From a virus (Duplodnaviria > Heunggongvirae > Uroviricota > Caudoviricetes), in the IMG/VR virus record IMGVR_UViG_2690316049_000008, positions 1 through 19,931 of that record: a stretch of 19,931 nt of DNA; one strand, 5' to 3'. Below the pieces are notes generated by a model. That model had not been told where the DNA came from, ran no database searches, and worked only from the letters and a program-made list of their open reading frames with translations. Shown in pieces: positions 1 to 19,475 of the stretch (positions are counted from its first letter, which is position 1; the number at the start of each line of letters is the position of its first letter). The translations under genes and the position numbers were made by a program.

Positions 1-1158
1 ATGCTCACCGTTAAGCAGATTGAAGCAGCAAAGCCGAAAGAAAAACCATACCGCCTACTCGATGGTAATGGCCTGTACCTTTATGTCCCTGTATCAGGGA
101 AAAAGGTATGGCAGCTTCGCTACAAGATTGACGGTAAGGAGAAAATCCTGACCGTCGGAAAATATCCGCTTATGACTTTGCAGGAGGCAAGGGATAAAGC
201 ATGGACCGCGAGGAAAGACATCTCGGTTGGCATCGATCCGGTAAAAGCGAAAAAGGCTTCGTCTAACAACAATTCCTTTAGCGCCATTTACAAGGAATGG
301 TACGAGCACAAGAAGCAAGTCTGGTCAGTAGGCTATGCAAATGAACTTGCAAAAATGTTTGATGACGACATTTTACCTATCATCGGCGGCCTTGAAATTC
401 AGGATATTGAGCCGATGCAACTGCTGGAAGTAATCCGCAGATTTGAAGATCGCGGTGCAATGGAGCGAGCCAACAAAGCCCGCAGAAGATGCGGCGAGGT
501 TTTCCGTTACGCTATTGTCACTGGTAGGGCTAAATATAACCCGGCACCTGACCTTGCTGACGCCATGAAGGGATACCGCAAGAAGAACTTCCCGTTTTTA
601 CCTGCCGACCAGATCCCGGCATTCAACAAAGCACTTGCAACATTTTCAGGAAGTATCGTATCGCTCATTGCGACCAAAGTTTTACGCTACACTGCCCTAA
701 GAACGAAAGAGCTTCGTTCCATGCTATGGAAGAACGTCGATTTTGAAAACAGGATTATCACCATCGACGCCAGTGTGATGAAGGGCCGCAAAATTCATGT
801 GGTCCCGATGTCGGACCAGGTGGTTGAACTTCTCACTACGCTAAGCTCAATCACCAAACCAGTATCAGAGTTTGTTTTTGCCGGGCGCAACGATAAGAAG
901 AAGCCAATCTGCGAGAACGCGGTATTGCTTGTGATCAAACAAATCGGCTATGAGGGTCTGGAAAGCGGTCACGGATTCAGGCATGAATTCAGCACGATTA
1001 TGAACGAGCACGAATGGCCCGCTGATGCTATTGAAGTGCAACTGGCACATGCCAACGGCGGTTCTGTGCGTGGAATTTACAACCATGCTCAGTATCTCGA
1101 CAAACGCAGAGAAATGATGCAGTGGTGGGCAGACTGGCTTGATGGGAAGGTTGATTAA
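1..1158 (+). CDS. int: Tyrosine site-specific integrase, P4/CP4-57-like family
   Basis: 385-aa ORF starting at ATG at position 1. The N-terminus (MLTVKQIEAAKPKEKPYRLLDGNGLYLYV...WQLRYKIDGKEKILTVGKYP) matches the arm-binding domain typical of P4-type integrases. The C-terminus has an H-x-x-R box (GHGFRHEF) and a candidate catalytic Tyr (VRGIYNHAQYL). GC is similar to the phage backbone. Confidence 0.93.
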   Translation: MLTVKQIEAAKPKEKPYRLLDGNGLYLYVPVSGKKVWQLRYKIDGKEKILTVGKYPLMTLQEARDKAWTARKDISVGIDPVKAKKASSNNNSFSAIYKEWYEHKKQVWSVGYANELAKMFDDDILPIIGGLEIQDIEPMQLLEVIRRFEDRGAMERANKARRRCGEVFRYAIVTGRAKYNPAPDLADAMKGYRKKNFPFLPADQIPAFNKALATFSGSIVSLIATKVLRYTALRTKELRSMLWKNVDFENRIITIDASVMKGRKIHVVPMSDQVVELLTTLSSITKPVSEFVFAGRNDKKKPICENAVLLVIKQIGYEGLESGHGFRHEFSTIMNEHEWPADAIEVQLAHANGGSVRGIYNHAQYLDKRREMMQWWADWLDGKVD

Positions 1159-1272
1159 AGAACAATAACAGCGCGTTGCAGCAATTACAGGAAACATCTT
1201 GTTACATACTTGGTTTTATGTCACTAACAAACTAGAGAAATTATGCATGAATAGACATATCGATCGTTATTT

Positions 1273-1288
1273 TTGTTGGTGATATACT
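1273..1288 (+). promoter_or_regulatory. Candidate sigma70 promoter: TTGTTG followed by extended -10 TGaTATACT
   Basis: TTGTTG at 1273-1278 and TGaTATACT at 1280-1288, about 60 bp upstream of the small membrane-protein ORF. Spacing between TTGTTG and the -10 is too short for a canonical -35, so activity would rest on the extended -10. Found by eye only. Confidence 0.2.
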
Positions 1289-1349
1289 TAACTGAATTTT
1301 ATGCACAACCATGTTGCGAATTTACCACATCATTACAAGGCAAACGGAA

Positions 1350-1667
1350 ATGAATAAGGATAAATGCTTAAATATAATTATATTAATAATCATTATAACA
1401 ATAATTGTTATTTCTTTTTATCCTATGTCATCAAGCTCAAAAGGGCATGATACGCAAAGTATTTCAGGTGACAACTTTAAATTAAGATCTTCTTTCTCAA
1501 GAGAATATTCATCATGCATATCAAACCTCAAAATGATAGCGCTAGACTTTGCTGGTCATAACATAGATTTCAACAGCCATAGCCAGTTCATAGCTTCAAG
1601 TGGCGAGGAAAAAATATTAGTAAAATGCACAAAAGATAATAAGTTACTATACATGCAAAATAAATGA
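1350..1667 (+). CDS. Small single-pass membrane or secreted protein of unknown function (~105 aa), cargo gene
   Basis: ORF with stop TGA at 1665-1667. N-terminus MNKDKCLNIIILIIIITIIVISFYP has a positive n-region and a ~20-residue hydrophobic core (signal anchor or signal peptide), followed by a ~80-aa Ser/Asn-rich hydrophilic domain with 3 Cys. Very AT-rich. An alternative in-frame start at 1311 (MLRIY...) would give 118 aa. No strong SD at either start. Followed directly by a strong intrinsic terminator. Confidence 0.5.
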   Translation: MNKDKCLNIIILIIIITIIVISFYPMSSSSKGHDTQSISGDNFKLRSSFSREYSSCISNLKMIALDFAGHNIDFNSHSQFIASSGEEKILVKCTKDNKLLYMQNK

Positions 1668-1673
1668 GAATTT

Positions 1674-1700
1674 CCGCACGCTTATCGCGTGCGGTTTTTT
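1674..1700 (+). terminator. Rho-independent terminator (perfect 8-bp GC-rich stem, 5-nt loop, T6 tract)
   Basis: CCGCACGC (1674-1681), loop TTATC, GCGTGCGG (1687-1694), then TTTTTT (1695-1700), 7 nt after the stop of the small plus-strand ORF. On the minus strand the same hairpin lies just past the stop of the convergent membrane-protein gene but has no U-tract, so it is mainly a plus-strand terminator. Confidence 0.75.
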
Positions 1701-3060
1701 ATTTTTTAGGCAATATATAGTATATTGCCTTATATGAAAAATATACAAATGATACAGTTATTATATTTTTTAAGAAAATAAATAAAAAGAATTCAAGGCT
1801 CTCCCTTGCCATAAAAAATGAAAAAGGCATTGTCATAAGTGCAGCTATTTGTATTACGCCAACTCTCCTCATCAATATGATTTTATCAAGAAATCTAAAA
1901 ACAACGCCTGAGATAACATATGAGCACCAGAAAAAATACTTTCCGAAAATAACAAGCGATGACCCAAGCAAAGTTGATGCCATATTCAATCCATTGCTAA
2001 GACCAAGAGCACTCACGGTAAAGTAATATGAGCTATTCATTGTGACAATTGGTTTGTCAGGCCATATGAATCTTGGGATAAACCCTGAAAATTGAGTAAA
2101 GAAATAATAGATACCACCAACATTGCGATCATTGCTAAAGTATTTAACAGCTATACTCTGATAATTGATAGGAGATACGCTATCAGCTAAATATCTTACT
2201 ATAATGCCAAACAGAGAGCCAGACTCTGAAATATCAACATCTGAGTATCTCACTATAGCCATTATACCAATTAGAATTAAGCACGCAGAGCCTATGCATA
2301 TTAACTTCAATATGCCAATTAGGCCTCTAGAGTGACAAATAAGAGCAACAATAAACATTGCGGAAAACATTACATTTCTTGAGCCACCAATAAGCACATA
2401 ATATGCCATCCCAAATAACAATGACATTATAATTGATTTAACGAACACATACTTATCGTCAGATGTAATTGCATACACTATAACAGCAGAAACAAAAGAT
2501 GACATTATCATTATAATAACACCACTACCAGCATTTCCGCCAAGCTTTAAAGCATAATCATCAGAATTAAAAGATATGCCGTTTATGGCATAAAAAGCCA
2601 TCATCCCAACAAAACTTAAAAACAACGTTGTTCTTACAAATAATTTTGGGCTACCAATAAAATATTTATCAGAAAATGTTATTTTATTTCTTCCTGCCGC
2701 TGTATGAGAGAATACATAAAACAAAACTATACCAATAAACGACAACGTAGACACATCATTTATATATTGATACGGCATATATTCTGCAGAACTAACTTTT
2801 GCCCCAACTCTAAACGGAAGCGATATATACCCAAAAAAATGAGTAAAAACAAGGAATAACATCCCAACAGATTTGAATGACACGCCATGTTTTTTGAATG
2901 ACACGGCACTTAAATATATTAATGTTATGGCATACAACGCAGGTAGCACATAAGTAAAAAATGATTCATAAATATTCATAATATTGTATGTAAAAATGAC
3001 TATTTTTACCCGATCTTTAAAGAAAGTACAGGATGATAGCGCGTTTCTACGCGCCATCAT
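1699..3060 (-). CDS. Polytopic inner-membrane protein (~11-12 predicted TM helices); probable Wzy/WaaL-like O-antigen polymerase or ligase-type surface-polysaccharide protein
   Basis: ORF with stop at 1699-1701. Hydrophobic throughout, with many 18-24-residue hydrophobic segments and one longer, less hydrophobic stretch (roughly residues 275-350) that could be a large periplasmic loop, as in Wzy/WaaL proteins. Extremely AT-rich and Ile/Phe/Tyr/Asn-rich, unlike the neighbouring phage genes. Start is ambiguous: GTG 3066 (overlaps the tailspike stop as GTGA), ATG 3060 or ATG 3057. An AAGGTGA Shine-Dalgarno that contains the tailspike TGA stop sits 2 and 5 nt upstream of the two ATGs, implying translational coupling. 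The functional call is inference from topology, composition and position, not from a recognised motif. Confidence 0.8.
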   Translation of the reverse strand: MMARRNALSSCTFFKDRVKIVIFTYNIMNIYESFFTYVLPALYAITLIYLSAVSFKKHGVSFKSVGMLFLVFTHFFGYISLPFRVGAKVSSAEYMPYQYINDVSTLSFIGIVLFYVFSHTAAGRNKITFSDKYFIGSPKLFVRTTLFLSFVGMMAFYAINGISFNSDDYALKLGGNAGSGVIIMIMSSFVSAVIVYAITSDDKYVFVKSIIMSLLFGMAYYVLIGGSRNVMFSAMFIVALICHSRGLIGILKLICIGSACLILIGIMAIVRYSDVDISESGSLFGIIVRYLADSVSPINYQSIAVKYFSNDRNVGGIYYFFTQFSGFIPRFIWPDKPIVTMNSSYYFTVSALGLSNGLNMASTLLGSSLVIFGKYFFWCSYVISGVVFRFLDKIILMRRVGVIQIAALMTMPFSFFMARESLEFFLFIFLKNIITVSFVYFSYKAIYYILPKK

Positions 3061-3062
3061 AG

Positions 3063-5243
3063 TCACCTTACAACAAATTTGCCATTGCTAATGTCGTTAA
3101 CTAGTGTTGCCACTATGTTAGCAATATCCTTAGTAGATAGGGTGTTTACGTCTCCACCGCGTAACGCACCGGAATTGGTAAATGGATACTGCTGAGGTTG
3201 TGAGCTATTGGCAAACTGGTTGTTAGCCTCATAACGTTTTGTTGGTACAGGGTTGTACCCAATACTACCTGTGGTTGTGTCAGGGGCCACACAGTTCGTA
3301 ATGTTCACTATAGCGTCAGAACCACTACCATTTGTATATATTGGCCTGTTAACTGTCCCGAATGGTTGCACAGCTACCAGCCTGTTAACAATAACACTCT
3401 GTGTGGCTAGTGCTTGTAAATAAGATTCTGCGCTTCCATTGCACCCCCTCAAGTTCACATTATCAACCTCTATGTGGCGGCAGTTAATGATGACGATATA
3501 ATGCCCATTTTCTGTGTTAGGGTAAGCGCCTACTATGCGAACATTTTTTAATGTTAAATCTGTGGTTGGCACCGCAGCAGGCCCACCGTTGAAAACAAAC
3601 CCTTTTGCACCATTTACAAGTGCGTGTATCGTAATGCCGTCAAACTCGATGTCGGCAAGATTAGTCGTGGTATTGGCTGAGTTTCTCAAAAAATAAACAG
3701 CTTCAGCAGAGCAACCTGATATCAAGAAGTTAGAAAAACGCATCCTTGTGTTTTCTACCGGATAGAAGCGGCATAACAAACCCTGCGAGCAGTTACGAAT
3801 AACAACGTTATCGTAGGATACGTCACTAGCTCCTTCAATTGCGACACCTGCGTTCGAACTTTCTACATATAGTCCAGTAACTACTCCATTACGGAAATTC
3901 CCTCGAAGACCGTGGCTTTCACAGTTTTTGATTGTAACGGCGTTTATGTTAACTCTTGTGATAGCTGTGCCATCACCATAACCGTTCATAAGGTCGTCTG
4001 ACTGAATACGCAAACCGTTACCACCAGAGGTATTAATGCTCACATCGTGAATCATAAGATTAAGCGTACGGTTTGGGCGACGTGATGAGAAGAACAAAGA
4101 TGAGGCCCAAGTGTTTCTGCAACGGATATGATGGACGTGCGCCTCTGTGGGGTCATTAACAATGATCGCCATGCCAGTTCGGTTGCTGCCATCTGGATCT
4201 TGAATTTTCCCACGACCACAATCATGTGAGTACAGATTATCGGCAAGAACCCATCTCCCATAATCCATCGTTACGTTGCTATTCCATGCCCCCTGCAATT
4301 CACACCCTGAAAGCTCAAGTGTACCTGCAGATTGCATGGCCAAACCAACCCCTGGGTCAAATGAAGCATTCTGCCGATAAAAATCAAACAAGAAATTACC
4401 GACAATGCGTATATCATATGGAGTATAGTCAAACTCTTGATTTGATTCGTTCCATGTCCGTGGGGATCTGAGCCATAATTGTCTGGAATCTACCGTCACT
4501 TTTGGCAATAACGGCTTTATGAGGATGTCTCCCTGAATATTAAATATACCTTCTACAGTTACGGGAGAGTAAGCGATCCCGATATTTCCAGATAGTGGAA
4601 GTAGTCTACTAAGTTGAGCGTCATTTTGTGCAATTTTCCAACCAGAATTAACCTCGTTAAAAAATGATATTGGGTAAAGTTCAATATTATCATTAATTAC
4701 AGTTGAGTCATAACTGGTAATTGTCAATGGTGATGATAATGGTGTGCTCATCATCATAAGGGCGCCATCAAGCCTAACGAATCTTACACCTTCGGGAATT
4801 AAGTCTCCTATTTTTGCATCAATTCCAATTTTATTAGGATAAACCTCACCACCTAAAAATCCATTCATTCCTCGAAGCCAAGATAGATTTAACATGACTG
4901 ATAACTGATCTGGATCGTACTTCAGCACATTAGGGAAATAGAACTGCTGTGATCCATATGCATCGTACACAGCCATAGAATGCCATTGTACAGTAACGAA
5001 CTTAGCAATCTGTCCGTTATATACAGGGTAGCCAGCAGCGTTAATAATTATTGGTTGCGAAACGGGAATGTGAGAGCCGTCTTCGTTCTCCACATAAACC
5101 TGAATTTGGTTTTCAGGATTTACCGGGTCCGTGTCAATTTTACCGATATAAATTTTGCCATTGGCTACGGCTTTAAAAGAACGAGCCATAGTGAAGAGTT
5201 GCGAAGGCATGCTTACCACAACATTGGCTGTAATGTCTGTCAT
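3063..5243 (-). CDS. Tailspike protein with P22/Sf6-type N-terminal head-binding domain and a divergent C-terminal receptor-binding domain
   Basis: 726-aa ORF. The first ~115 residues ([46 protein letters not shown]...NVLKYDPDQ) match, from memory, the conserved head-binding domain of P22 gp9 and Sf6/HK620 tailspikes. The remainder is Asn/Gly/Ser/Thr-rich with repetitive short beta-strand-like segments, consistent with a parallel beta-helix glycanase domain. GC drops after about nt 4900. SD GGAG lies 9 nt upstream of the ATG. Confidence 0.93.
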
Positions 5244-5262
5244 TTAATTTGCTCCGGACGTA

Positions 5263-5298
5263 GCAATTCCGGACAAGATGCAACCTGTCCGGCATTGC
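5263..5298. promoter_or_regulatory. 13-bp imperfect inverted repeat (RNA hairpin or possible operator) in the 5' leader of the tailspike gene
   Basis: GCAATTCCGGACA (5263-5275), 10-nt spacer, TGTCCGGCATTGC (5286-5298), with one mismatch. A further direct copy of TCCGGAC is at 5253-5259. It lies 20-55 nt upstream of the tailspike ATG, between the last ejection gene and the tailspike. Confidence 0.3.
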
Positions 5299-5338
5299 AC
5301 TAATGTCAGTTATGATTTGTTAATTATGAGGTGAGTCT

Positions 5339-5416
5339 ATGCAAAGAGATCTGTTGAACATTGCGTTCTACATAGTTGGTTTTTGCACGTTCCTGGTGTT
5401 TGCGAAGCTATTCTGA
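5339..5416 (+). CDS. Hypothetical 25-aa hydrophobic peptide (MQRDLLNIAFYIVGFCTFLVFAKLF), antisense to the late operon
   Basis: ATG at 5339 preceded by GAGGTGA (5328-5334) at 4-nt spacing; stop TGA at 5414-5416. Overlaps the 3' end of the gp16-like gene by 9 nt on the opposite strand. The peptide is one predicted TM helix. Too short for the ORF track, no homology evidence, could be chance. Confidence 0.2.
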   Translation: MQRDLLNIAFYIVGFCTFLVFAKLF

Positions 5417-7405
5417 CAACGCATCAGACTTGGCCCCCTGAGTCAGGGCGTTAATGGCCTTTTGCGCCTGCTGCATGGCTTTCTCAAACGCTGTTGATCC
5501 GCGTGGTGTACTTGCCATTCTGAGCATTGCATTTCTGAATGGCTCGCTCTCATAGGCGCGAGTAAGAAGTCCGTAGCTTACTGCTGCGCCAGTTGTTGCA
5601 GGGTTCATTGCCGTCCCATACCCGATAATGAACGGGATGGTTTGCTGCCCTGTTGGTGTTGTTACTGCCGCTTTTGCAGCCTGCTGCGTGGATTGCAGGT
5701 AGTTTTTCAATCCTTTCAGATAAGCAGCGTCCTGCCCCTTAAATGTGATGCCAGTCTGGTTTTGCAGGATGTTAAGCTGCCGAAGGAACTGGTCAGGGGA
5801 TCCTCCAGATTTCTCCATCGCCTTTCCAATAATGCCATTGCGCATTTGCGCCCTGCCAACACGACCAACTGAGTTATACAGAGTCTTAATTTCCGATTTG
5901 TTCTTGCTGAATAGCATGTTGTTGACAACTTCCGGCGTCAGATCGCCTTTCATGAGAACATTCTTCAGCCTGGTATTCTTTAGTTTAGCCGCTTCGTCAG
6001 CGTAGACGGCATTGGCCTGCTGATATTTACGGAGAGTATCGTTGCCAAGATTCTGTCCAATGGCACCATTGATATCGTCGGTCATTGCCTTGTAAACGCG
6101 CTGAATGGCAGCATCGGAACGGTTTGGTAACACTGGTCGCTCACCCTTCACGTCCATTCTGAACTGGCTGCGCAGATCGCTTAATTGCTTCAAATCCAGA
6201 TTTACCGGACCATCAGGACCAGCATTGCGAACAAGCTCATCACGATAGGACTGAAGTTTTGAAATAGTCTCGTTATCAGCTACCTTACCAAGCTTCTGCA
6301 GATTAGATATTTCTGTATCAATCTGCTGAATTGCTCGTGCAGGCTGAATGTTTACTCCTGCCATAGCATTCTGAACCCGCTCCAGTCGATTACCTGCGGC
6401 ACGACGAATTCCTGATGTTTTCGCTTTAAGGCTGTCAATAACAACAGCTGGATCATACTCACCGAATTTATCAGCAAATCTCTGCACCAACTGGCTTCTC
6501 GCTTCCTGTTGCGTTGCTCTCATTCCGCTTGTGCCAGCCAGAGGGATATTTTCTGCTGTAGTCTGCGCCATTTTTCCGACGCGGGAAGTTGGGTGTAACA
6601 GGTCTGTGGTGTGCAGAGGAACACCTTCACGCTCTGCAAATCTGATAGCCTGCTGCGCTTCTGGCGCAATAGCACCACGAACGCCACGATAAGCAGCACC
6701 TAATCCACGTCCGGCAGCGTTAATAGCACCGCCAGCAAGTACACCAACGCCTAAATCGGTGGCGAGTGCTTCCGCATCATCTTTCGCACTATTTGCAGCA
6801 AGTGATCCAACTGCGTTTTCTGCGAGAAGGCGAGTTGCACCCTGAGCAATTCGACCAGCAAGTGTTGGTGCCTGTGTTGCAGCTCTCTCAACTCCAGCAG
6901 GAGTGAGGTAAGGCAATGCTTCAGCAAATACCCTTCCCTCTGTCGTTTGTGGAGTCAGCACGCCTTGCTGAAGGCCAAAGTCCTGCTCTAATCCCTGCGT
7001 TGTTACTCGTGGCGCTGGTTGATATGTCCCATCGCCAATGCCAAGTTTACCGCCAGCCCAAGCCGCCGCGCTTGTTACAGCATCGGCAACTGATGCAGGT
7101 ATGTTTGCCACGTTCACGCCAGCCTGTACCAGTCCGCGACCAGTCTCTTTTACTGCTTCGCCAAGATCAGACATAAATCCACTTTGCTGTGGTTGTTGCT
7201 GTGCTACTGGCTGTTGTGTCTCCACTGGCTGCACAGATGGCAATGGATAGGCAGCATAGAAAGCTTGCTTAGCCTGCTCTGCATTTTCTCCGGCTTGCGG
7301 GGCCACGACTTCATTGAAGTATTGCTCCTGAGCCTGCGCTTTTTGTTCTGGTGCTAACGCCTGATACTGTGGAGAGGCGATAACATCTTTCCATGCTTTA
7401 GCCAT
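5408..7405 (-). CDS. Ejection (injection) protein, P22 gp16-like
   Basis: 665-aa ORF, third of three consecutive ejection-protein genes in the P22 order gp7-gp20-gp16, directly upstream of the tailspike. Ala/Gln/Gly-rich low-complexity composition typical of these proteins. ATG at 7405 overlaps the upstream stop as TAATG; SD GGGGTGA. Confidence 0.8.
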   Translation of the reverse strand: MAKAWKDVIASPQYQALAPEQKAQAQEQYFNEVVAPQAGENAEQAKQAFYAAYPLPSVQPVETQQPVAQQQPQQSGFMSDLGEAVKETGRGLVQAGVNVANIPASVADAVTSAAAWAGGKLGIGDGTYQPAPRVTTQGLEQDFGLQQGVLTPQTTEGRVFAEALPYLTPAGVERAATQAPTLAGRIAQGATRLLAENAVGSLAANSAKDDAEALATDLGVGVLAGGAINAAGRGLGAAYRGVRGAIAPEAQQAIRFAEREGVPLHTTDLLHPTSRVGKMAQTTAENIPLAGTSGMRATQQEARSQLVQRFADKFGEYDPAVVIDSLKAKTSGIRRAAGNRLERVQNAMAGVNIQPARAIQQIDTEISNLQKLGKVADNETISKLQSYRDELVRNAGPDGPVNLDLKQLSDLRSQFRMDVKGERPVLPNRSDAAIQRVYKAMTDDINGAIGQNLGNDTLRKYQQANAVYADEAAKLKNTRLKNVLMKGDLTPEVVNNMLFSKNKSEIKTLYNSVGRVGRAQMRNGIIGKAMEKSGGSPDQFLRQLNILQNQTGITFKGQDAAYLKGLKNYLQSTQQAAKAAVTTPTGQQTIPFIIGYGTAMNPATTGAAVSYGLLTRAYESEPFRNAMLRMASTPRGSTAFEKAMQQAQKAINALTQGAKSDALSE

Positions 7406-8799
7406 TAATCACCCCATAGTGAAGAAAAGTTACTGCTGGCTGCTGGTTGTGATACCTGTGCAGGTTGAGATTGCTGCCGCTGAGATTTACCAACATTAAC
7501 GTTATATTGTTGGTTGTAATTGTTGGTGTATTCCTGAATCTCACGAATCGACTGCTGCATAGCCTCCGGGCTTGAATAGTCAACCTGCGGCATCCCCTGA
7601 AAATACATCTTCGCTTCTGCAACGGTGTTAATACCACTGGCCCCCATGTCCCTTGCTGCCGCCACACCCTGATTCTGCATTCTGCCCTGAATACGTTGTG
7701 CTGAGTTATATAACTGGCGCTGCTCTTTTCCTGTTAATCGGCTGCGAACATCAGCACCAATTGCCGGGTTACCTGCGCCGCCGGTCATTCCTGTCATGAA
7801 ATCGAGAGCAGAAGCGTCTGCATTTGCGATCGCGTCGATATCCTTCTTCATGGCATAGTTTTGTGCTGATGCAGACGATGTTGCAGGCGCTGCGATTGAA
7901 CTGGCAGGAACGCGAACCATATTCCCCTCGTTGTCGATGCCTTCGTAGAACGCATTTGCCCCAGCGCCGTGAAGTTTCCCGCCAACCGTTACAGTTCTGC
8001 CATCTGATAACTGAACTGTACGCTCATCATTCCCAGCGGTTCCTCTTGTTGACGCTCGCTGCATTGCCAAATCCTGCCCGCGTCGCGCAGTAGAAGCAGA
8101 TAAATCCTGACCGCGCATCGTGATGTTCTGACCTCGTGCTGTTAGCGCCTCTCCAGCCTGATTGCTGCGGATTGTCTCTGCAAGTTTTCCGCGATCAATC
8201 TCACGCCCAACGATTCTGTCTTGCGCCTGAAAATATTGTTCTGGACCAAGTGCAGCCATTCCAAGGTGATCAACAAACTCTGTGAAACCTTGTGGATTTT
8301 GCTGATACATTTTCGCCACATCCAGAGGGTCTACTCCGGCACGAGTAAGCTCAGATGAGTTGTTCTGCAACCATGACATCATGGCTTCTGGAGATGAAGC
8401 TGCCAGTCTGGCACTTGCTGCCAGTGTGCCGACAGTGGAACGCTGGTCTTCATCGACAAATTTCATGCCGTTTCTTACAGCGTCAAACTGCTCAGGATAC
8501 TGTGATGCCAGTTTTCGCATTGCATCGCGGTCACCAGATGTATATGCATCAGCATAAGCCTGCTGAAACTCTTGCTGTCGCTTCTGCTGATCCATCTGCT
8601 TATACATATCCATGACAGATGAAATGCCCTGCAAAGCCTGCAAGCCAACGTTATTACGTCCTGAACGCTCCATCTCGTTATTCTGTCGAATGTATGCAAG
8701 CGTGGCGTCTGCATCACTTGCTCTTGGAGCGTTGGAGTTCATGCCGCCTAACCCGGCAAGAAGCGCGCCTGAATTACCAGCCTGTTGCCATGTAGCCAA
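7405..8799 (-). CDS. Ejection (injection) protein, P22 gp20-like
   Basis: 464-aa ORF in the position and size class of P22 gp20. The first codon at 8799 is TTG, preceded by a strong SD GGAGGTG at ~5-nt spacing immediately after the upstream stop, so a TTG start is likely. Confidence 0.8.
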
Positions 8800-8811
8800 G
8801 AGACACCTCCA

Positions 8812-9471
8812 TTAAAACAGTGAACCAAGAAGGCCGACGCCAGCACCAATTGCTGTACCCCAACCAGGCATGATTGCAGTACCCATCGCAGCACCTGCCG
8901 CAGCTCCACCGAGAGCACTCTGAAAACCAGACGGTTTATTGGCATTTGCTGCCGCTGCCGCCGCCTGCTGTTGATACAATTGGCTGACGTTGTTAGCGTA
9001 GTTCTGCCCGGCGTTTGCCTGACCTGTAAGAGCACCAAGGCCAATGTTTGCCAGATTGTTGTAGTTGTTCATCTGACCTGACAGCCAGTTTTGACCGAGT
9101 GTAGGTGCGATTGCTGCTAACTGGTTTCCTGTTGCTGTAGAGCCTAATCCACCCGTTGCCTCTGCTGCAGCAAGACTCTGATAGCGCGCCTGCCCTGCAA
9201 GGTCTTTATACTGCTGGGAGTTGTAATACTGGTTAAGCGCCTGACCTTGCCCCTGAAGAGAGGAAAGATTCTGCAACTGTGATACGTACTGCTGAGCGAG
9301 TGGCGTGAACGGTGCAAGGTTCTGCATGTTTGTCTGCCACATTTCACGCTGCAATTCGATACCCTTTTCAGTTGCGCGTGCCTGGGCTTTAGAGCCGGAG
9401 TCGCTGCCGCCTTTCATGTACCCATTCATGGGAAGCAATTTATTCTTGAAGCTTTCGCTAAGTACCAACAT
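8812..9471 (-). CDS. Ejection (injection) protein, P22 gp7-like
   Basis: 219-aa ORF with a Gly/Ala/Gln-rich C-terminus ending in a hydrophobic Gly-rich tail, and a KGGSDSGSKAQARATE motif resembling P22 gp7. ATG at 9471 is preceded by GAGGAG at 7-nt spacing. Overlaps the gp14-like gene by 14 nt. Confidence 0.8.
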   Translation of the reverse strand: MLVLSESFKNKLLPMNGYMKGGSDSGSKAQARATEKGIELQREMWQTNMQNLAPFTPLAQQYVSQLQNLSSLQGQGQALNQYYNSQQYKDLAGQARYQSLAAAEATGGLGSTATGNQLAAIAPTLGQNWLSGQMNNYNNLANIGLGALTGQANAGQNYANNVSQLYQQQAAAAAANANKPSGFQSALGGAAAGAAMGTAIMPGWGTAIGAGVGLLGSLF

Positions 9472-9925
9472 TTAATAGCTCCTCATATTTCGAACGAGGT
9501 AATTGATAGAGGGTGATTCCTACCGGTTTTCCGTTACTCATGTACGCATCATCAAGGTGACCAACACGGGTAGCGCCAAGCAAACGGATAATTGCCCGTC
9601 CATATTTTGTGGTGTCAGGAACCATAGTGATGCTGTTAAGGAATGGTGAGTTTTCGAGAAGCCACTTGCAGAATAATCGATGCCCTTGCAGTGCATATTC
9701 ACCACGGAATCCGGGGTCGTACACCGCATGGCATTCAACAACGCTATGCCAGAAGTTACGCACTTCATGAACGCCAGCCAGCACTAATCCTTCGTAGATG
9801 CCGAGATATACCGCATCAGGCTTGATGTAGTATTTATCTCCACTGTCTACGATATTTCCCGTGTTTGCCGGGTTGTTGAGGAATTCTGCAAGCTTCACCG
9901 GATTATCGATGAGCTTTATTTCCAT
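9458..9925 (-). CDS. P22 gp14-like protein (role annotated only by position in the late operon)
   Basis: ORF in the gp14 position between tail needle and ejection genes. The track starts at GTG 9928, but ATG 9925 has the better SD spacing (GGAG 5 nt upstream) and overlaps the tail-needle TGA stop as TGATG. Confidence 0.75.
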   Translation of the reverse strand: MEIKLIDNPVKLAEFLNNPANTGNIVDSGDKYYIKPDAVYLGIYEGLVLAGVHEVRNFWHSVVECHAVYDPGFRGEYALQGHRLFCKWLLENSPFLNSITMVPDTTKYGRAIIRLLGATRVGHLDDAYMSNGKPVGITLYQLPRSKYEELLNVGT

Positions 9926-10878
9926 CACTGCTCCGCAATGATTTTGATGGTTGTGGCAGTAAACGCCGCACCATTAGACTGAATGGTTAACGTACTGCCA
10001 TTTGTGGCAAGAAAGCCGTCTTTATCCACGCTGAAGAACGTAGCTAACAGGATGTTGTCGGTTGTTGTCGCCGAGTTGCGACTGCTTACCAGTGTGTCAG
10101 GAACAGAACCGGAAAAAGTTAGCTGCATTGACCTGTTGGCGGTTCCGCTGGGCCACGTCCCAACAATCGACAGCTTGAAGAACAAGGTTTTGTTCTCGTT
10201 GAACACAACCATCTTGTTGTTAACGGTGTCGAAGAATGGTGCCAACTCACCGGATGACGGCGTGAGCGTTTTCAGCAGGCTAACAAGGTTGGTAGGCGAT
10301 GTCGGAATTGTTACCGATACCCCTGAGTAAACAACCTCTGATTTCTTGCGCGTGGTGGCATACTCAAGCGCAGATATTCTTGTTGAGTGATCACCAACTG
10401 TGCTTTGTAGCGTCGAAATACTTCCCTCTGCCGCTGTGAGCCTGGTATCAAGTGCGTCGATATCGGTTGTATTCTGAGTTATGCGCGCATCATGGTTTGC
10501 TAACTCAGATTCATTGGCAGCAATTCGCGTCTCGTGATCAGCCAGCTCTGTTTCAGCAGCCGTAATCCTTGTTTCATGATCTGCAAGAGTGCTTTCCGCT
10601 GCTGCAATTCTATGTTCATGATTGATGAGAGTTGCTTCAGCAGCTTCAATTCTGGATTCATGGTCTGCAAGGGTGACATCCTGCTCATCGTTCCTGACCT
10701 GTGCATCATAAGCGCCCTGTCCGGCCTCGTTGGCTTTGTTAGCCACGTTACCAACATCAGTGCCCTGTGCGATAACGTAAAGCAGATACGACTGCGAGAA
10801 GATATTGCGTGGAAGGACTGATGTGTCGAGCCGTGTAGCCTGAATGATTACCGGCACATTGAGATTCGAATCAGCCAT
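9925..10878 (-). CDS. Tail needle protein (P22 gp26-like) with trimeric coiled-coil repeats and a C-terminal knob domain
   Basis: 317-aa ORF. The N-terminal ~65 residues ([43 protein letters not shown]...) match the conserved gp26 N-terminal hub-binding region. The centre holds 14-residue (double-heptad) repeats of the [11 protein letters not shown] type. The C-terminal ~140 residues are a Ser/Thr-rich globular extension absent from P22 gp26, consistent with an Sf6-type knob. ATG overlaps the gp10-like stop as TAATG. Confidence 0.88.
10459..10677 (-). repeat. Imperfect tandem 42-bp (14-codon) repeats, about 5 copies, inside the tail-needle gene
   Basis: Protein-level repeats [14 protein letters not shown] / [14 protein letters not shown] / [14 protein letters not shown] / [14 protein letters not shown] / [14 protein letters not shown] are mirrored by ~42-nt DNA repeats; 10546-10587 was checked to encode [14 protein letters not shown]. 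Short ORFs on both strands in the ORF track here are frame shadows of this repeat. Confidence 0.7.
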
Positions 10879-12296
10879 TACTCAATCCTTATCTGGCAGC
10901 CTGACAGAGTGACAGGTGACTTCGTGATAACGCGCAATTTGAAACCGACATTTTTCCTGATGCGCCCTACTCGCTTCCACAAAACGCGTTTGTCGTAAAC
11001 GAACGGTTCATTCTGCTCAATCATCTGCTCACGCCCGTAATTGATGCCGTCAGTGGTTGCAGAGAGAAAAAGGCGGTCAGCATACTGCGCAACTCCAGTT
11101 GAAGATTCAACTTCAAGGTCGAAAACTCTGGCGTTATCTGCTTTGAACAACGGAGTAAACAGCAGGTGTTCCTGCTGCTTGTCGTACTGACTGCTGATAT
11201 CGAACTGCAATTTCCCGGTCACCGATTCCAGCTTATCGCCGCACGTTATCTGATTTCCTTCGTAAATGAAGTCGATAGCGCGGTACACATCGTCATACAA
11301 GCCTGTTTTCAACACACACCATTGCGGACCATTGGCGCTTGAAGATGCGTCGTACACGAGGACGTGGCGCGGAAGGTGGATAATCAGCAACTCATGAGCA
11401 TCAAATCGTAGAGACTCCATCACGCCATCAGCCAGTTCATCAGCAGTGTAGGAGCGGAGGATTTTCTCAATGCTCGCGCTGGCGATTGGTGATACCTGAC
11501 CGGAGCCGATGATGTAAACAGACGGCGCACCTGTTGCCGGATTGCTGATGAACGCATACGAATCAGCAAACGGCGTTTTGCAGTAGGTTCCGGCGATTCC
11601 TTTTTGCACCATCAACGATGGCTGGGCGACATACAAAGCGGCACCAACAGTGGTTGCACCAGTCAGGGAAAAATATTCAATCGTCGATGAACCAAAGCAG
11701 ACGATGAAGTCTCGCCATGTTCCGATGCCGATGATGCCGTCAGGCTGCGATTCTGCGCGATATTGTGCGCTGTATCGGTCAGGATGTGATTCGTCTTCAA
11801 GGTCAGTGATAAACCATGAATCAGTGCCGTCTTTTGACCACGCATAACGCCCACGTAAGCGCGTAATGTCGCGTACTGAGCCTAACTCATACTGCGTGAA
11901 TCCGCTGTCTGTAGGCCAGTTTGAGACGGTTTTAACCGTGCCATCATAGCGATACTCGACCAGTTTCCCGTTAACGCCTACCGCCTGTGATGTCCGACCA
12001 TGCGCCATTGATACACGACCACTTCCGGCGACGTCACCGACTTCACTTTCGCCTTTGTACAGCTTGCCACCACACACGCGATAAACAGCATTCTGCGCCA
12101 TGTTGTACTCGACGCCACGCGATACGCCGTTCACATCAGAACGTTTGGCAATGCCCGGGAATGAGCGAAGATATCCGCTGCTGTTAAGGATTTCTTTTGG
12201 TGTAGCCAACATATTCACTGGCAGATAGTCGATATAGTCGGCGTTTCGGAAGTCTTTGCCGACACCTTTCATAAGCGGAAGTTGCTGAATCGGCAT
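10878..12296 (-). CDS. Tail hub / head-completion protein, P22 gp10-like
   Basis: 472-aa ORF, matching the length I recall for P22 gp10 and sitting in its position downstream of the gp4-like gene. ATG at 12296 with SD AGGTGA 5 nt upstream. Confidence 0.85.
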
Positions 12297-12355
12297 TTAT
12301 TCACCTATGCGTTTGGGATATCGCCATCAATCAGAGGGAGATCGCCTGGATAATA

Positions 12356-12787
12356 TCAGTCAGATGTAAACACGTCATATTTATTACCCTGTCCTACAGG
12401 AAAATCTCCACGTCGTCGCATTGAAGGAACAACCAGAGTGTCGGTCATCAAGGCATCATATGAGCGTTGGGCGTTACTGAGAACTTGCGGAGTTGGTTCA
12501 AGGCTGTAATCAGATAGCATTCTCAGCAATAACTGATAGCCTACTGCGTGTTTGTATTTTCTTGGAAGACCTGACTCATCATCTGGTAATGGCTGATCAT
12601 CTCCAGTTGCGAAAGCGTAACCAATGTCGCCGGGGTTAATCATCCACTCGGACATCATATCTTCCAGATCATTTACACCATCTTCAATTGATTGCGGCTC
12701 AACATCAGTCAGCGATGCATTAGAAGCAATAGCAAACTTACGAAGCGCAAAAAGGACGATCTCACCCTTTGTCAGTACTGTTGCCAT
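12356..12787 (-). CDS. Head-to-tail adaptor protein, P22 gp4-like
   Basis: 143-aa ORF whose N-terminus (MATVLTKGEIVLFALRKFAIASNASLTDVEPQS) aligns with what I recall of P22 gp4. It is the first gene after the coat gene and small ORF, as expected. Confidence 0.82.
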   Translation of the reverse strand: MATVLTKGEIVLFALRKFAIASNASLTDVEPQSIEDGVNDLEDMMSEWMINPGDIGYAFATGDDQPLPDDESGLPRKYKHAVGYQLLLRMLSDYSLEPTPQVLSNAQRSYDALMTDTLVVPSMRRRGDFPVGQGNKYDVFTSD

Positions 12788-12947
12788 TGTCTGCCGCCTT
12801 ACGACCTCGCTTACTGGTCGGTTTCAATTCATCAACTGAGGCAACAAAGCCCAACCTTTCGAAAAACTGGAAGTCTTTTTCTGCGATAACGGCCTGTACA
12901 TGCCCGGATTCGTTATCTGCGGCAAGGAATACACTCATCCGATCCAT
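12762..12947 (-). CDS. Small hypothetical protein (61 aa) between coat and adaptor genes
   Basis: ATG at 12947 preceded by a good SD (AAGGAA, 5-nt spacing). Overlaps the start of the gp4-like gene by 26 nt in another frame. No recognisable motif. Confidence 0.45.
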   Translation of the reverse strand: MDRMSVFLAADNESGHVQAVIAEKDFQFFERLGFVASVDELKPTSKRGRKAADNGNSTDKG

Positions 12948-12958
12948 ATTGTTTCCTT

Positions 12959-12986
12959 AAAACATAAAAGGGGCGTAAGCCCCTTG
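12959..12986 (-). terminator. Intrinsic terminator-like hairpin immediately after the coat gene (probably partial or leaky)
   Basis: On the minus strand, right after the coat TAA stop: AAGGGGC, loop TTAC, GCCCCTT, then TTATGTTTT (7-bp stem; stem and loop at 12968-12985). It is followed by the SD of the next small ORF, so some readthrough into downstream late genes is expected. Confidence 0.6.
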
Positions 12987-12989
12987 TTA

Positions 12990-14261
12990 TTACGGATTAC
13001 CGAAGAACTGACCGCCCATGTGAGGGTTAAAGCACACATATGCAGGCAGTAAGTCGAAGCGCATTTTTTGCACGTTGGCATCGCCATCTGCGTATTTATG
13101 TACGCGGATGGAGAAACCTTCATATGTTGCAACAGCAGAATCAATACTGTGCAGTTTCGGCAGTGGGATAGAGCCAAGTCCACAGAAGAACTTGTTATAG
13201 AACAGGTTTGGCTTCATTGTCTGGCTAGCAGTGCCTACTACAGATACGGCATCGCCTGCCTCTACCTGACGACTTACAGAGTTGTACTGCGGGTTTGTAG
13301 TGTCATAAATCGGAACACCAGAAAGCGTAACCGTCACATCGCCACCGCTGTCTGAATTAGCATCAGCAGTAACCGTTGCAGTGAAGCTAATTGGTGTGGT
13401 TCCGTTATACAACGCCTGTTTGGTCTGCTGTTGCAGCCAGTAGGTATTGGTGAATTTGACCTGATCACCAGCTTTCAGAAAACCTGTAACGCTGGCTGTC
13501 GCTCCGGTCAATGTTACAGTGAACTGGTATGAGTCTTTAACTGCGTTATAGGTAACAGTTGGCTGTGTTTTGACTGTCAGTGTTCCGCCAAATGCCCCCT
13601 GCGTACGAGAGGCAAGCCCATTAGACATCAGTGCGCGAATGCCGCCAAAATTGGTTGGGATCTGTGCGTTCTCCCATGCAGTACGAACCAATTGATCTGA
13701 AGCATGCAAACCAGTCTGCGCATCAGCAAGTCGCTGTGCAGACCATGGATCCATTACAGCATAGTTTTCACCTTCATTAACGCCGAGGTCTTTCAGGAAA
13801 GATGCCGTCTGCGCAACATCAGACCATTTGGTGATTGGAGTATTGGGGCTACCAAGTGACAACGCACCGTTATTCATCATGAAGTGAGCAAGCTCTGTTT
13901 CAAGGTCGGTAACGATTCGCTGGCGAACCGGCGCGAGAATTCCTTCCAGCTGGTTAAGCTTGATCGCTTCCTCCAGTTGCTGATATTCAACAGCAACAGT
14001 GATGTAGTTACCTACACGCCCCGTAGCTTTACCTGAGATCAGGTTGTTTTTATTTTTCCCTGAAATATCACCAGTGGGAGTACGGAGGGATGAGAATTGA
14101 TGCGGACGTTTAAAGCTAACGCTATCGCCAGTGCTGGAGTTGATTTCACCTGCCAGCAACTGACGGTCTACGGTTTTCGCCAGAACTAAATCTGACATAA
14201 AACCCGGAAGGAATTTTTTCAGAACGATTTGACTGACGTTACTGTCGAGATTGTTAGGCAT
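12990..14261 (-). CDS. Major capsid (coat) protein, P22 gp5-like
   Basis: 423-aa ORF directly after the scaffold gene and before a terminator hairpin, the classic P22-like order portal-scaffold-coat. Strong SD (AAGGAA, 7-nt spacing). Confidence 0.88.
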   Translation of the reverse strand: MPNNLDSNVSQIVLKKFLPGFMSDLVLAKTVDRQLLAGEINSSTGDSVSFKRPHQFSSLRTPTGDISGKNKNNLISGKATGRVGNYITVAVEYQQLEEAIKLNQLEGILAPVRQRIVTDLETELAHFMMNNGALSLGSPNTPITKWSDVAQTASFLKDLGVNEGENYAVMDPWSAQRLADAQTGLHASDQLVRTAWENAQIPTNFGGIRALMSNGLASRTQGAFGGTLTVKTQPTVTYNAVKDSYQFTVTLTGATASVTGFLKAGDQVKFTNTYWLQQQTKQALYNGTTPISFTATVTADANSDSGGDVTVTLSGVPIYDTTNPQYNSVSRQVEAGDAVSVVGTASQTMKPNLFYNKFFCGLGSIPLPKLHSIDSAVATYEGFSIRVHKYADGDANVQKMRFDLLPAYVCFNPHMGGQFFGNP

Positions 14262-14272
14262 TTATCTTTTCC

Positions 14273-15157
14273 TTATTCGATTTTTGCGCCGGGGCATAAT
14301 TTGTTGAATTCGTCTTGTTTCGCATCAGCACCGCCACCACGTACTTCCGGCTCTGGCTTGATGGCTTTCTTTGGTTTTGGAGCAAGGCTTACCTGTTTGC
14401 TAATCTGCCCCAAGAGGAATGCTGCGCGAATTGGATCTGTCTCAGCGGCTACACGCTGGCGTAATTGCTGGCTCTTGCCTAAGCCATAGGCGAGTAGTTC
14501 AGAGCCTTCGTCTGCACAGTGAATGATGATTTCCTGCTGAATTGGTGGTAGCTCACTAAGAACAATGGCTTCCATTTCCTGATAATCTTTCACAGGAAGT
14601 TTGGCTGCCCGTTGTTTATGCGCTTCTACCCTTTGCTGGAAACGCTGCTGGTATTCCTGTTGCTGACGTAGTTTTTGTTGCTGCTGCTGTTCGACACGGC
14701 CTTTTTTCTCATGCCAATCAGTCAATGCCTGTTCAAACGCCTGTTCGTCATAATCACACGACTCAAGAGTCGGTTTTGGTGGAATAGCGTCTGGTTGTGG
14801 TTGCTGATGTTCCGCTGGCTTGGCTAATGCTTCCTCAAGCTGGCGGCGCAACTCACGGTTTTCTTTCTGTGTTTCTTTGAAGCCTTTGCGAAGATCTTTC
14901 ACCCATTGCGGCGCAGGTTGCCCGTCAATGTGATCATCATCGTCAGCGTTAAGCTGAATTTCTTCATCACCAATACGCAAGGCGTAATCTTCTGGTGTCT
15001 CTTCGGTTTTTTCAGGCTCAGTTGCCACCTCTTTACCGTTGTCATCCTGGCTTTCATTCTCAGGCTGTGACTCTGTTTGGATGATGGTTTCTTCTGCATT
15101 TTCCTGTGTTTCAGACAGGTCAATAACCTGACCGTCGATGATCAGTTCGTTTTCCAT
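14273..15157 (-). CDS. Scaffolding protein, P22 gp8-like
   Basis: 294-aa ORF between portal and coat. Highly acidic N-terminal half, Gln/Arg-rich predicted helical middle (QQQQQKLRQQQEYQQRFQQRVEAHKQR) and a basic C-terminus, as in phage scaffolds. SD AGGAG 6 nt upstream of the ATG. Confidence 0.82.
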   Translation of the reverse strand: MENELIIDGQVIDLSETQENAEETIIQTESQPENESQDDNGKEVATEPEKTEETPEDYALRIGDEEIQLNADDDDHIDGQPAPQWVKDLRKGFKETQKENRELRRQLEEALAKPAEHQQPQPDAIPPKPTLESCDYDEQAFEQALTDWHEKKGRVEQQQQQKLRQQQEYQQRFQQRVEAHKQRAAKLPVKDYQEMEAIVLSELPPIQQEIIIHCADEGSELLAYGLGKSQQLRQRVAAETDPIRAAFLLGQISKQVSLAPKPKKAIKPEPEVRGGGADAKQDEFNKLCPGAKIE

Positions 15158-15170
15158 TGATTACTCCTGG

Positions 15171-17297: not shown

Positions 17298-17299
17298 GT

Positions 17300-19134: not shown

Positions 19135-19213
19135 ATTGATTATTTCCCTTCTGCTTGCTTATCCCATTCATCGCGGAATTTGGATGGGTTGTCGAAACCT
19201 TGAGTTGCCATGT

Positions 19214-19456
19214 TTATGCTCCGGTAGTGAACAGGTCTAACGCTTCCTTCGATTTACGCACCGCTTCAAATGTGCGGATCGTGATATCCGAATTAGCGCC
19301 ACCTGACTGGAAGTGAATTTTGAATAGCTCAAGCTTCAGTTCGTCAGTGCCAATGAATTGAAATGCTTCTTCTGCGGCTGCGTTCTGGTTCATGACCAGT
19401 TTGTAAATCTCTAACTGGAATTTCTGTTCTTCAGTCATGGGAATAATCTCTGCCAT
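19214..19456 (-). CDS. Hypothetical protein (80 aa), acidic, predicted helical
   Basis: ATG at 19456 preceded by GGAG at 6-nt spacing. Sits between the gp66-family gene and terS. No recognisable motif. Confidence 0.6.
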   Translation of the reverse strand: MAEIIPMTEEQKFQLEIYKLVMNQNAAAEEAFQFIGTDELKLELFKIHFQSGGANSDITIRTFEAVRKSKEALDLFTTGA

Positions 19457-19475
19457 TGTTGGCTCCGTTTATCCG

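Follow-up and report, generated by a model that had tools for sequence, protein, structure and literature searches.

The subject of this analysis is a tailspike gene and the gene directly downstream of it, wzy, which lie on the minus strand of a 19,931-nucleotide (nt) piece of tailed-phage DNA (IMG/VR record IMGVR_UViG_2690316049_000008, positions 1 to 19,931), the whole of which is referred to here as the window. The window represents the late-operon end of a prophage that is P22-like (of the Sf6/HK620 type) and located at argW of Escherichia coli, and its positions 1-5500 are 100% identical to the record of E. coli strain N1454, which was used as the host reference. It is proposed that the two genes form a module in which a mosaic tailspike specific for the receptor is paired with serotype conversion of the polymerase-swap type known from phages epsilon15 and D3, and the probability of this reading is put at roughly 0.6. 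The proposal is built on the domain architecture of the tailspike, the family of the downstream gene product and the polysaccharide genes of the strains that carry the pair. The coordinates of all features are given in Table 1.

The tailspike is encoded by a single open reading frame (ORF) of 726 amino acids (aa) running from 5243 to 3063, its location on the minus strand having been left unstated in the initial annotation. The Pfam Head_binding family (PF09008) matches residues 1-113 (E 5.8e-66, 220 bits), and the PDB sequences of the solved Sf6 gp14 and P22 gp9 tailspikes align to residues 1-118 only, with nothing aligned past that point. At the DNA level a 548-nt stretch that reaches from the upstream spacer as far as nt 4903 (codon ~114) is 91.4% identical to Sf6, and past nt 4903 the identity drops to ~50%, as expected for unrelated sequence. 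The initial annotation had proposed a mosaic protein with a P22/Sf6 head-binding domain of ~115 residues and a breakpoint near nt 4900, with alignment to the P22 and Sf6 tailspikes as a check, and both proposals are borne out by a similarity that is confined to the N-terminus and does not run along the whole length. This is the pattern of the P22 group, in which conservation is confined to the head-binding domain (residues 1-115) and the remainder occurs in unrelated forms (PMC2629481). The sequence comparison supports a mosaic tailspike whose receptor-binding domain (RBD) has been exchanged. A lower GC content from about nt 4900 onward had also been described, and this holds in part: GC falls from 0.423 in the head-binding part to 0.387 at 4300-4898, but is back at 0.451 at 3150-4299, giving 0.426 for the whole RBD and comparing with 0.491 for the phage backbone. 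The sharp drop comes at the downstream genes, where wzy at 0.323 and a small ORF at 0.289 form an insert of ~30% GC, and it is these genes that make up the GC discontinuity proper.

The RBD belongs to a family that has been joined to many different particles. Residues ~120-726 share 68-70% identity with the C-terminal 600 aa of gp66, a protein of the N4-like phage G7C, and with the tailspikes of the Ackermannviridae phages MK-13 and fGh-Ecl02, and are 66-86% identical to prophage spikes that bear other N-terminal adaptors (PF18668 or none). The family, which corresponds to PHROG 12242 ('tail protein'), is therefore met behind P22-type, PF18668/G7C-gp66-type and other adaptors, in podo-, myo- and siphoviruses, in agreement with the exchange of receptor-binding domains that had been suspected. 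Fold recognition of the C-terminal domain had been suggested as a further check, and it yielded a parallel beta-helix: the AlphaFold2 model, built from 39 homologues, has a pLDDT of 87.2 and a pTM of 0.81 and consists of consecutive short beta-strand rungs followed by a C-terminal helix. Foldseek, at a probability of ~1, matched it to CBA120 TSP1 and TSP3, APK16 gp47, the Sf6 and HK620 spikes and a polygalacturonase, that is to tailspikes, capsule depolymerases and pectate-lyase-type beta-helices, at TM scores of just 0.2-0.4, and weak Pfam Beta_helix matches are found on close homologues. The fold class predicted by the model is clear, a right-handed parallel beta-helix, yet no enzymatic class is given to the RBD because the Foldseek matches are generic beta-helices of low TM. 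No solved close relative from which an active site might be transferred was found among the PDB sequence and Foldseek matches, and the receptor of the gp66 module is not identified in the G7C papers. The CobraSix tailspike was considered as a relative of the RBD and rejected, its similarity being not above noise.

Two further E. coli P22-like alleles (L018 and L020; L-numbers denote loci fetched for comparison) allow the exchange to be seen on a smaller scale. Across the RBD core (~4300-3150) they share only 44-70% DNA identity with the window, against 94-100% in the flanks of the core, in the final ~90 nt of the tailspike gene and in wzy; the N-terminal part of the RBD also falls within this 94-100% range in L018. 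By sequence comparison the core appears as a recombination-delimited segment that is exchanged in front of a constant wzy. RBD and wzy are thus adjacent in three E. coli P22-like alleles (window, L018, L020), and they are also adjacent in Enterobacter hormaechei prophages (L022/L005) and in matching metagenomic contigs. As both proteins have diverged in Enterobacter, where the RBD is 66-70% and Wzy 61% identical to the window, and the two are still paired there, the suggestion of the initial annotation that receptor specificity and a surface-modification gene travel as a cassette is upheld, with the qualification that the linkage is not absolute. The RBD is found without wzy in the virulent phages and in one temperate contig, and none of the phage records searched holds RBD and wzy together. 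More distant RBDs, of 45-57% full-length identity, are followed by convergent acyltransferases or by a small ORF and a 406-aa polytopic membrane protein. Within E. hormaechei, two prophages that share one backbone and lysis cassette differ in the same manner, the 68% RBD of L022 being followed by a co-directional wzy and the 66% RBD of L034 by a convergent Acyl_transf_3 gene, which suggests that wzy and Acyl_transf_3 are alternative conversion genes behind one RBD family.

The gene that follows the tailspike had been described as a membrane-protein gene; a gene is indeed present, and its product is more specifically a predicted repeat-unit polymerase of the WzyE family. The match to Pfam WzyE (PF06899) is 68.2 bits (cut-off 25) over residues 39-428 of the 455-aa frame. 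WzyE proper polymerises enterobacterial common antigen (ECA), and as the phage protein reaches only 72 bits against an equivalog cut-off of 510 for the NCBIfam ECA-polymerase model NF002820, it is placed within the family but not as the ECA enzyme itself; its identity to genuine Salmonella WzyE is 22-24%, and the gene sits in the prophage between the tailspike gene and int, outside the wec (ECA) cluster. Alignment with Enterobacter-phage, Vibrio, Photobacterium, E. coli-cluster and genuine Salmonella WzyE sequences reveals shared motifs, GG(S/T)R, RY, SP and P..W..P together with single N, D and R positions, and the residues G198, G199, R201, R244, Y245, S269, P270, P302, W306, P310, N315, D365 and R392 are invariant in the phage, Vibrio, E. 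coli-cluster and Salmonella proteins. Homologues in phages are rare: the sole annotated phage to carry one is the temperate Enterobacter siphovirus CobraSix (55%), in which wzy follows an unrelated tailspike, and a scan of IMG/VR returned only five contigs, all CobraSix-like in layout. Identity to the homologues in Enterobacter phages is 55-61%, with all family-invariant residues kept, and the closest relative outside phages is the polymerase of a V. cholerae capsule locus (39%). PHROGs has no family for the phage Wzy, there is no match among PDB sequences, and no relatives were seen in a scan of GTDB species-representative genomes.

The host side of the proposed module is a polysaccharide cluster. 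Between galF and gnd N1454 has a six-gene Wzx/Wzy cluster, consisting of a WzyE-family wzy, wzx, a 496-aa orf3, a GT4 gene, pssD and pssE, found in an O8:H9 background and in an order that appears to resemble that of the K40 cluster of O8:K40:H9; beyond gnd-ugd-wzzB lies the O8 mannan ABC-transporter cluster. The resident polymerase of the galF-gnd cluster (L008:16907-18148) and the phage Wzy share 32% identity (E 6e-38). The tailspike-wzy cassette occurs in 26 of 5426 complete E. coli genomes and the galF-gnd cluster in 66 of the same 5426, with 19 carriers among the listed cluster-bearers. Two components of a polymerase swap are thus found, a polymerase encoded by the phage and, in at least 21 of the 26 carriers, a host Wzx/Wzy cluster with a polymerase of the same family, and the data support a tie between carriage of the cassette and this one host polysaccharide cluster. 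Many carriers group with named O8:H9 strains of sequence type (ST) 410, clade B4/H24RxC (PMC10786849), and DebRoy et al. state that the wzx/wzy genes between galF and gnd are responsible for a capsule in O8 (PMC4732683). Strain J31 (wild boar) has a diverged allele of the cluster together with O8, and in 90-1 (broiler; diverged allele) and Z226-5 the cluster is present and the O8 genes are absent; because of these last two it is the Wzx/Wzy cluster, not O8, that the carriers share, and O8 mannan was rejected as the receptor on the same grounds. Some damage to neighbouring genes was seen in passing. Z226-5/6 have an IS3 element within the tailspike-wzy cassette, and wzzB and orf3 of their host cluster are also damaged. 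In N1454 a manC-type gene of the O8 mannan cluster (L008:27991-29406) has an internal stop, the gene being intact in STEC308 and J31, and O8 expression in the N1454 lysogen may rely on the colanic-acid cpsB.

A comparable cluster is found well outside E. coli. The wza-wzb-wzc capsule locus of V. cholerae GCA_038011275.1 (L033) is syntenic in its remaining genes with the E. coli cluster at 35-51% identity, carrying wzy, wzx, a 498-aa orf3 homologue (46%), GT4, Alg14, GT28C and ugd, with glycosyltransferases at 42-51%, and its Wzy is nearer to the phage Wzy (39%) than to the E. coli resident Wzy (32%). This comparison suggests three polymerase lineages of one family acting on one type of repeat unit, as would be expected of an alternative polymerase that changes the linkage. 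The resident gene itself has suffered in some lysogens: in the three non-ST410 cluster-bearing carriers it is frameshifted at one poly-T tract near codon ~30, by -2 nt in J31 (L014:~39240), -31 nt in 90-1 (L017:~5510) and +1 T in Z226-5 (L041:~19640). Two non-carriers from that allele group (2020CK-00188 and ZYB62) have the gene in frame, as do the ST410/STEC-type carriers. These frameshifts, too few for a statistical test at three strains against two, fit a resident polymerase that is dispensable or harmful alongside the phage polymerase.

It is possible to set out how such a module might work. The head-binding adaptor would attach to the particle a beta-helix domain that can be exchanged and that binds, and probably also processes, a surface polysaccharide made by the Wzy-dependent route. 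This receptor is likely to be the product of the host galF-gnd cluster (wzy-wzx-orf3-GT4-pssD-pssE), which in O8 strains is a K antigen. In the lysogen the phage Wzy would most likely link the same lipid-linked repeat units by a different linkage, with the resident polymerase outcompeted, inhibited or eventually lost. The tailspike receptor would thereby disappear, and it is therefore proposed that superinfection by this phage and by phages with the same RBD would be blocked. As for expression, a conversion gene would need to be active in the lysogen, when the late operon is off, and wzy is most likely expressed independently of that operon with translation from ATG 2979. The hairpin past the tailspike stop would end or attenuate late transcription, and during lytic growth a longer Wzy may also be made to some extent by coupled translation at the AAGGTGA-TGA-ATG junction.

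The junction between the two genes bears directly on this last point. On the minus strand it reads gttgtAAGGTGActATGATGgcg, with the tailspike TGA at 3065-3063, a GTG at 3066-3064 giving a GTGA overlap, AAGGTGA at 3069-3063 and ATG codons at 3060 and 3057, so that the observation of a stop codon inside a Shine-Dalgarno (SD) motif or overlapping a GTG start was correct and the geometry of translational coupling is present. The wzy frame is open from GTG 3066 to 1699 (455 aa), and ATG 3060 is only 2 nt past the tailspike stop. The conserved protein, however, begins at Met30 (ATG 2979), which is where the Pfam and NCBIfam models, genuine WzyE, all seven other aligned members and seven of the eight homologue clusters start. 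The 29-codon extension is absent from those seven clusters and is unrelated to the one called in the Enterobacter homologue (P0002/L022), and in CobraSix the equivalent region has three in-frame stops. The Enterobacter junction ends GTCAGATAA, without the AAGGTGA motif, an SD or an ATG near the stop, and has instead a canonical terminator, GGCGCGC-AACAA-GCGCGCC followed by AUUUUGCUUU. Within the extension in the window lies the hairpin ATGATGGCGCGT-AGAA-ACGCGCTATCAT, which starts 2 nt past the tailspike stop and encloses both ATG 3060 and ATG 3057; its 12-bp stem has a folding energy of -19.6 kcal/mol (z -5.85), and the tail CCUGUACUUUCUU is a weak U-tract that barely passes the terminator scan. 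GC-rich hairpins with proper U-tracts occupy the equivalent position past the RBD stop in Enterobacter (L022/L005) and in G7C gp66, and past the CobraSix tailspike, and the G7C stem-loop is considered by its authors to be a terminator-like module boundary and a possible recombination boundary (10.1101/542787). Taken over a wider region, the 101 nt from 2975 to 3075 (minus strand) fold at -33.6 kcal/mol (z -5.9), and the minimum free energy structure pairs the 3' end of the tailspike gene, including AAGGUGACUAU, with AUAGUCAUUUUUAC, ~20-35 nt upstream of ATG 2979; such predicted pairing could tie the accessibility of the SD at one start to the other start. An independent start of wzy at ATG 2979 is considered probable.

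A number of observations weigh against this reading as a whole or against the start it prefers. No convincing SD or promoter precedes ATG 2979, either on inspection of the sequence or in a sigma-70 scan, which found 14 sites where 16.6 are expected by chance in shuffled sequence; as the scan is not above shuffled sequence no promoter is claimed, and the lone match at the junction (ATGGCA-18-TATGAT, 3085-3056) is weak. Termination at the junction hairpin may itself be weak because the U-tract is poor. The frame upstream of Met30 is open in both the E. coli and the Enterobacter loci, for which the chance expectations are 0.13 and 0.16 respectively; a good SD also stands 2 nt before ATG 3060, and together these observations leave room for the long, coupled form. 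The pairing of RBD and wzy is loose, since one wzy is found behind different RBD cores and a 66% RBD is found with an acyltransferase. The host association amounts to about five independent lineages because most carriers belong to one ST410-like clone, and competition or inhibition must be assumed for the ST410/STEC-type carriers, all of which have an undamaged resident wzy in clusters of 100% identity. Lastly, two carrier lineages lack the cluster. E94 (bovine; L010, L016) has an O180 O-antigen cluster and no WzyE-type galF-gnd cluster, and a 10-nt deletion between two TTATGAAT repeats at ~2970-2979 of its prophage wzy breaks both candidate frames and destroys the start region. N273 (L040, Swiss) has an ST410-type backbone in which an O131-type, sialic-acid-containing O-locus replaces O8 and the Wzx/Wzy cluster, with wzzB a pseudogene; its cassette and argW-proximal coordinates match those of other carriers, which is consistent with a switch of the O-locus after lysogeny.

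The most immediate alternative concerns how wzy is expressed. The initial annotation had the tailspike and the downstream gene expressed as one translationally coupled unit, in which ribosomes stopping at TGA 3065-3063 would reinitiate at ATG 3060 or GTG 3066 by means of AAGGTGA, melting the hairpin, and a Wzy of 453-455 aa would be made only when the late operon is on. A stop within the SD, an ATG 2 nt downstream and a GTGA overlap are textbook geometry for this, the burial of both ATGs in a hairpin is as a coupling-dependent start would be expected to look, the open upstream frame in two genera and the basic character of the extension, which suits a cytoplasmic N-terminus, point the same way, and in identical DNA the long form is chosen in most records by the NCBI Prokaryotic Genome Annotation Pipeline (PGAP), which selects ATG 2979 in J31, as well as by other gene callers. 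Set against this are the start of the protein models and of true WzyE at Met30, the lack of conservation of the extension, its stops in CobraSix and an Enterobacter junction that has a terminator in place of the SD and ATG, and a gene expressed late in the lytic cycle only would be expected to give no conversion in a lysogen. Variation within E. coli is uninformative on the start codon, because the junction (2940-3110) is 100% identical in the four diverged alleles examined. Obligatory coupling is thus not sustained and, as an account of the whole, is judged unlikely; that the coupled long form is the main Wzy product is likewise doubtful, and whichever start is used, lytic growth may bring a degree of read-through or coupled expression.

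Other alternatives accept the polymerase and question its purpose. The prophage Wzy might simply be the working polymerase of a host whose resident wzy is off or lost, so that polymerised K or O antigen is kept and nothing is excluded. There is a precedent in the phage-encoded Wzy that polymerises K127 units in A. baumannii (PMC9241936), and the three different resident-wzy frameshifts in three non-ST410 carriers, set beside two in-frame non-carriers, would be accounted for; however, the resident gene is intact in all ST410/STEC-type carriers, the comparison is one of three strains with two at a poly-T slippage hot spot that may vary regardless of the prophage, and replacement is in any case compatible with a polymerase swap and does not exclude it. 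It is judged improbable as the full explanation. Much less probable still is that wzy is an inert passenger or decaying remnant whose position merely reflects an insertion hot spot between tailspike and int. That gap is the usual accessory site of P22-like phages (oac in Sf6, gtr or acyltransferases elsewhere), and wzy is damaged in E94 by the 10-nt deletion and the cassette interrupted by IS3 in Z226-5/6, yet both damaged copies are in hosts where the cluster is absent or decaying, the gene is intact and 98-100% conserved in the other carriers, L018 and L020 even though the adjacent RBD core differs by 30-45%, and all invariant residues persist at 55-61% conservation in Enterobacter phages. 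That the enzyme remodels ECA in place of an O or K antigen is the least credible proposal and can be almost discounted: WzyE is the only family assignment it has and its invariant residues are common to Salmonella WzyE, but the equivalog score is far below its cut-off and the identity to true WzyE low, the nearest Wzy relatives come from K40-like capsule or O clusters and not from wec, and carriage goes with the galF-gnd cluster although every E. coli has ECA.

The classic cases of phage polymerases that alter the linkages of an O antigen come from Salmonella (epsilon15) and Pseudomonas (D3). The module in the window is most like epsilon15, which has its gp20 tailspike followed directly by genes for a polymerase (gp21, the beta-polymerase) and a small membrane protein (gp22, an inhibitor of the alpha-polymerase), and has an annotated terminator past the tailspike stop where the hairpin is found here. 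In epsilon15 the changed inter-unit linkage abolishes the phage's own receptor (PMC4815439), and the same outcome would be expected here. The two differ in that the epsilon15 polymerase is of the O-antigen-ligase/Wzy_C type and that of the window of the WzyE family, in that the epsilon15 inhibitor-polymerase operon is convergent with the tailspike whereas here wzy is co-directional, abuts the tailspike stop and has the small ORF on the opposite strand, and in their backbones, Uetakevirus as against P22-like. The layout of a small ORF and a 406-aa protein in L025 mirrors epsilon15 gp22-gp21, without sequence homology. In D3 a phage Wzy-beta replaces the resident polymerase and a small membrane peptide, Iap, inhibits the resident Wzy (PMC4815439); Iap has 31 aa, whereas the protein that is a candidate for this role here has 105 aa, with a membrane anchor and a soluble domain containing two Cys, and host, polymerase family and genome position also differ.

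The closest systems by backbone are Sf6 oac and gtrABC of P22 and epsilon34, which have the same backbone, head-binding domain and tailspike-int/att locus and the same logic of a receptor-binding protein with a modifier. These genes are transcribed on their own and modify the polymer by adding acetyl or glucosyl groups, oac being convergent with its own annotated promoter and terminator, whereas in the window the gene encodes a polymerase, is co-directional and has no annotated promoter. By RBD the closest are G7C gp66, MK-13 and fGh-Ecl02, 68-69% identical over ~600 aa and with a stem-loop past the stop as here, but these phages are virulent, have other N-terminal adaptors and carry no conversion gene. 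In A. baumannii K127 a prophage Wzy, encoded outside the polysaccharide locus, polymerises capsule units made by the host (PMC9241936); that system concerns a capsule in a different genus, and its abstract mentions no linkage to a tailspike.

The remainder of the insert holds a terminator and an orphan gene. At the end of wzy, positions 1674-1694 form a strong bidirectional terminator, CCGCACGC-TTATC-GCGTGCGG followed by TTTTTTATTT, with 8 pairs of which 7 are GC. The 105-aa protein encoded beyond it found only itself among 5.8 billion proteins, has no match in Pfam, NCBIfam or PHROG and shows no similarity to epsilon15 gp22. A tblastn search of the fetched loci gave one homologue of 34% identity that shares the two conserved Cys (L025:7394-7699, minus strand), directly upstream of the 406-aa polytopic membrane protein, the pair being convergent with a related tailspike (45% RBD). 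This 406-aa protein was compared with WzyE (by hhalign) and with epsilon15 gp21, and no relation to either was found. Small hydrophobic ORFs in convergent orientation to wzy are present at the Enterobacter and CobraSix loci as well. By analogy, the 105-aa protein may be a candidate accessory factor or antagonist of the resident polymerase, which is speculative. Taken to its furthest, the window might hold a complete polymerase-takeover system directed at a K antigen, either K-LPS or a group-4-like capsule, in O8-type E. coli, the pandemic ST410 clone among them, with a WzyE-family polymerase rewiring the inter-unit linkage and the 105-aa two-Cys protein as a new kind of resident-polymerase antagonist. 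This extended version is a long shot; if true, it would take in the repeated loss of resident wzy by poly-T slippage, and the swapping of RBD cores before the same wzy as phages chase the converted polymer.

Sequence comparison suggests conversion by a polymerase, as in epsilon15 and D3, in place of the acetyl- and glucosyl-transferases usual in P22-like phages, and no description of such a polymerase in a P22-like coliphage or in the WzyE family was found in the literature. The cassette is present in about one third of complete genomes that have the galF-gnd Wzx/Wzy cluster, many of them multidrug-resistant O8:H9 ST410. If the proposal is true, the surface polysaccharide of such strains could not be predicted from the chromosomal locus alone, which would bear on in-silico serotyping, glycoconjugate vaccines and the prediction of host range for phage therapy. 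The G7C-gp66-type RBD, to date an orphan module, would gain a candidate receptor, and there would be a simple genetic system for two Wzy enzymes that compete over one substrate.

Table 1. Features at the late-operon end of the prophage (positions in the window; stop codons included where indicated)
Feature	Position	Strand	Basis or remarks
IntS-type integrase	1..1158	+	Pfam integrase domains; 96-98% identity to Sf6, HK620 and CUS-3 int; argW end
105-aa orphan ORF	1350..1667	+	PGAP coding sequence; N-terminal membrane anchor and ~80-aa domain with two conserved Cys; GC 0.289
Bidirectional intrinsic terminator	1674..1694	both	Between convergent wzy and small ORF
wzy, predicted WzyE-family repeat-unit polymerase, 426-aa core	1699..2979 (stop included)	-	From ATG 2979; Pfam PF06899
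12-bp GC-cored hairpin	3033..3060	-	Terminator-like match in scan; probable late-operon terminator or module boundary
AAGGTGA, Shine-Dalgarno-like, holds the tailspike TGA	3063..3069	-	Read from the sequence
Tailspike gene, 726 aa	3063..5243 (stop included)	-	ORF list; PGAP 'phage head-binding domain-containing protein'
RBD, residues 116-726	3063..4898	-	Predicted beta-helix and C-terminal helix; G7C gp66-like
Hypervariable, apparently exchanged RBD core	3150..4300	-	44-70% nucleotide identity to L018 and L020 alleles
Head-binding (particle-attachment) domain, residues 1-115	4899..5243	-	Pfam PF09008; Sf6 and P22 matches

The surroundings of the module are those of a P22-type prophage. In N1454 the PGAP order is intS, a hypothetical gene, 'WzyE family oligosaccharide polymerase', 'phage head-binding domain-containing protein' and the ejection proteins, and the prophage adjoins a tRNA-Arg gene (argW) that lies 160 nt upstream of the integrase. 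The tailspike stands at the end of the late operon, past the gene 7/20/16 ejection-protein genes, PGAP giving the order tail needle knob protein, DUF2824 protein, hypothetical, DNA ejection protein, hypothetical, tailspike, and related loci have P22_gp7, Inj_translocase and P22_gp16 Pfam matches in the order seen in N1454. In STEC306-308 (L012 is STEC308) the cassette adjoins bioA-ybhB and is accompanied by an integrase remnant only. The spacer between the gene-16-type ejection-protein gene and the tailspike (5244-5407) is only 164 nt long and contains the inverted repeat CCGGACAGGTTGCATCTTGTCCGG, and in related prophages its position is occupied by an arc/mnt/ant insert.

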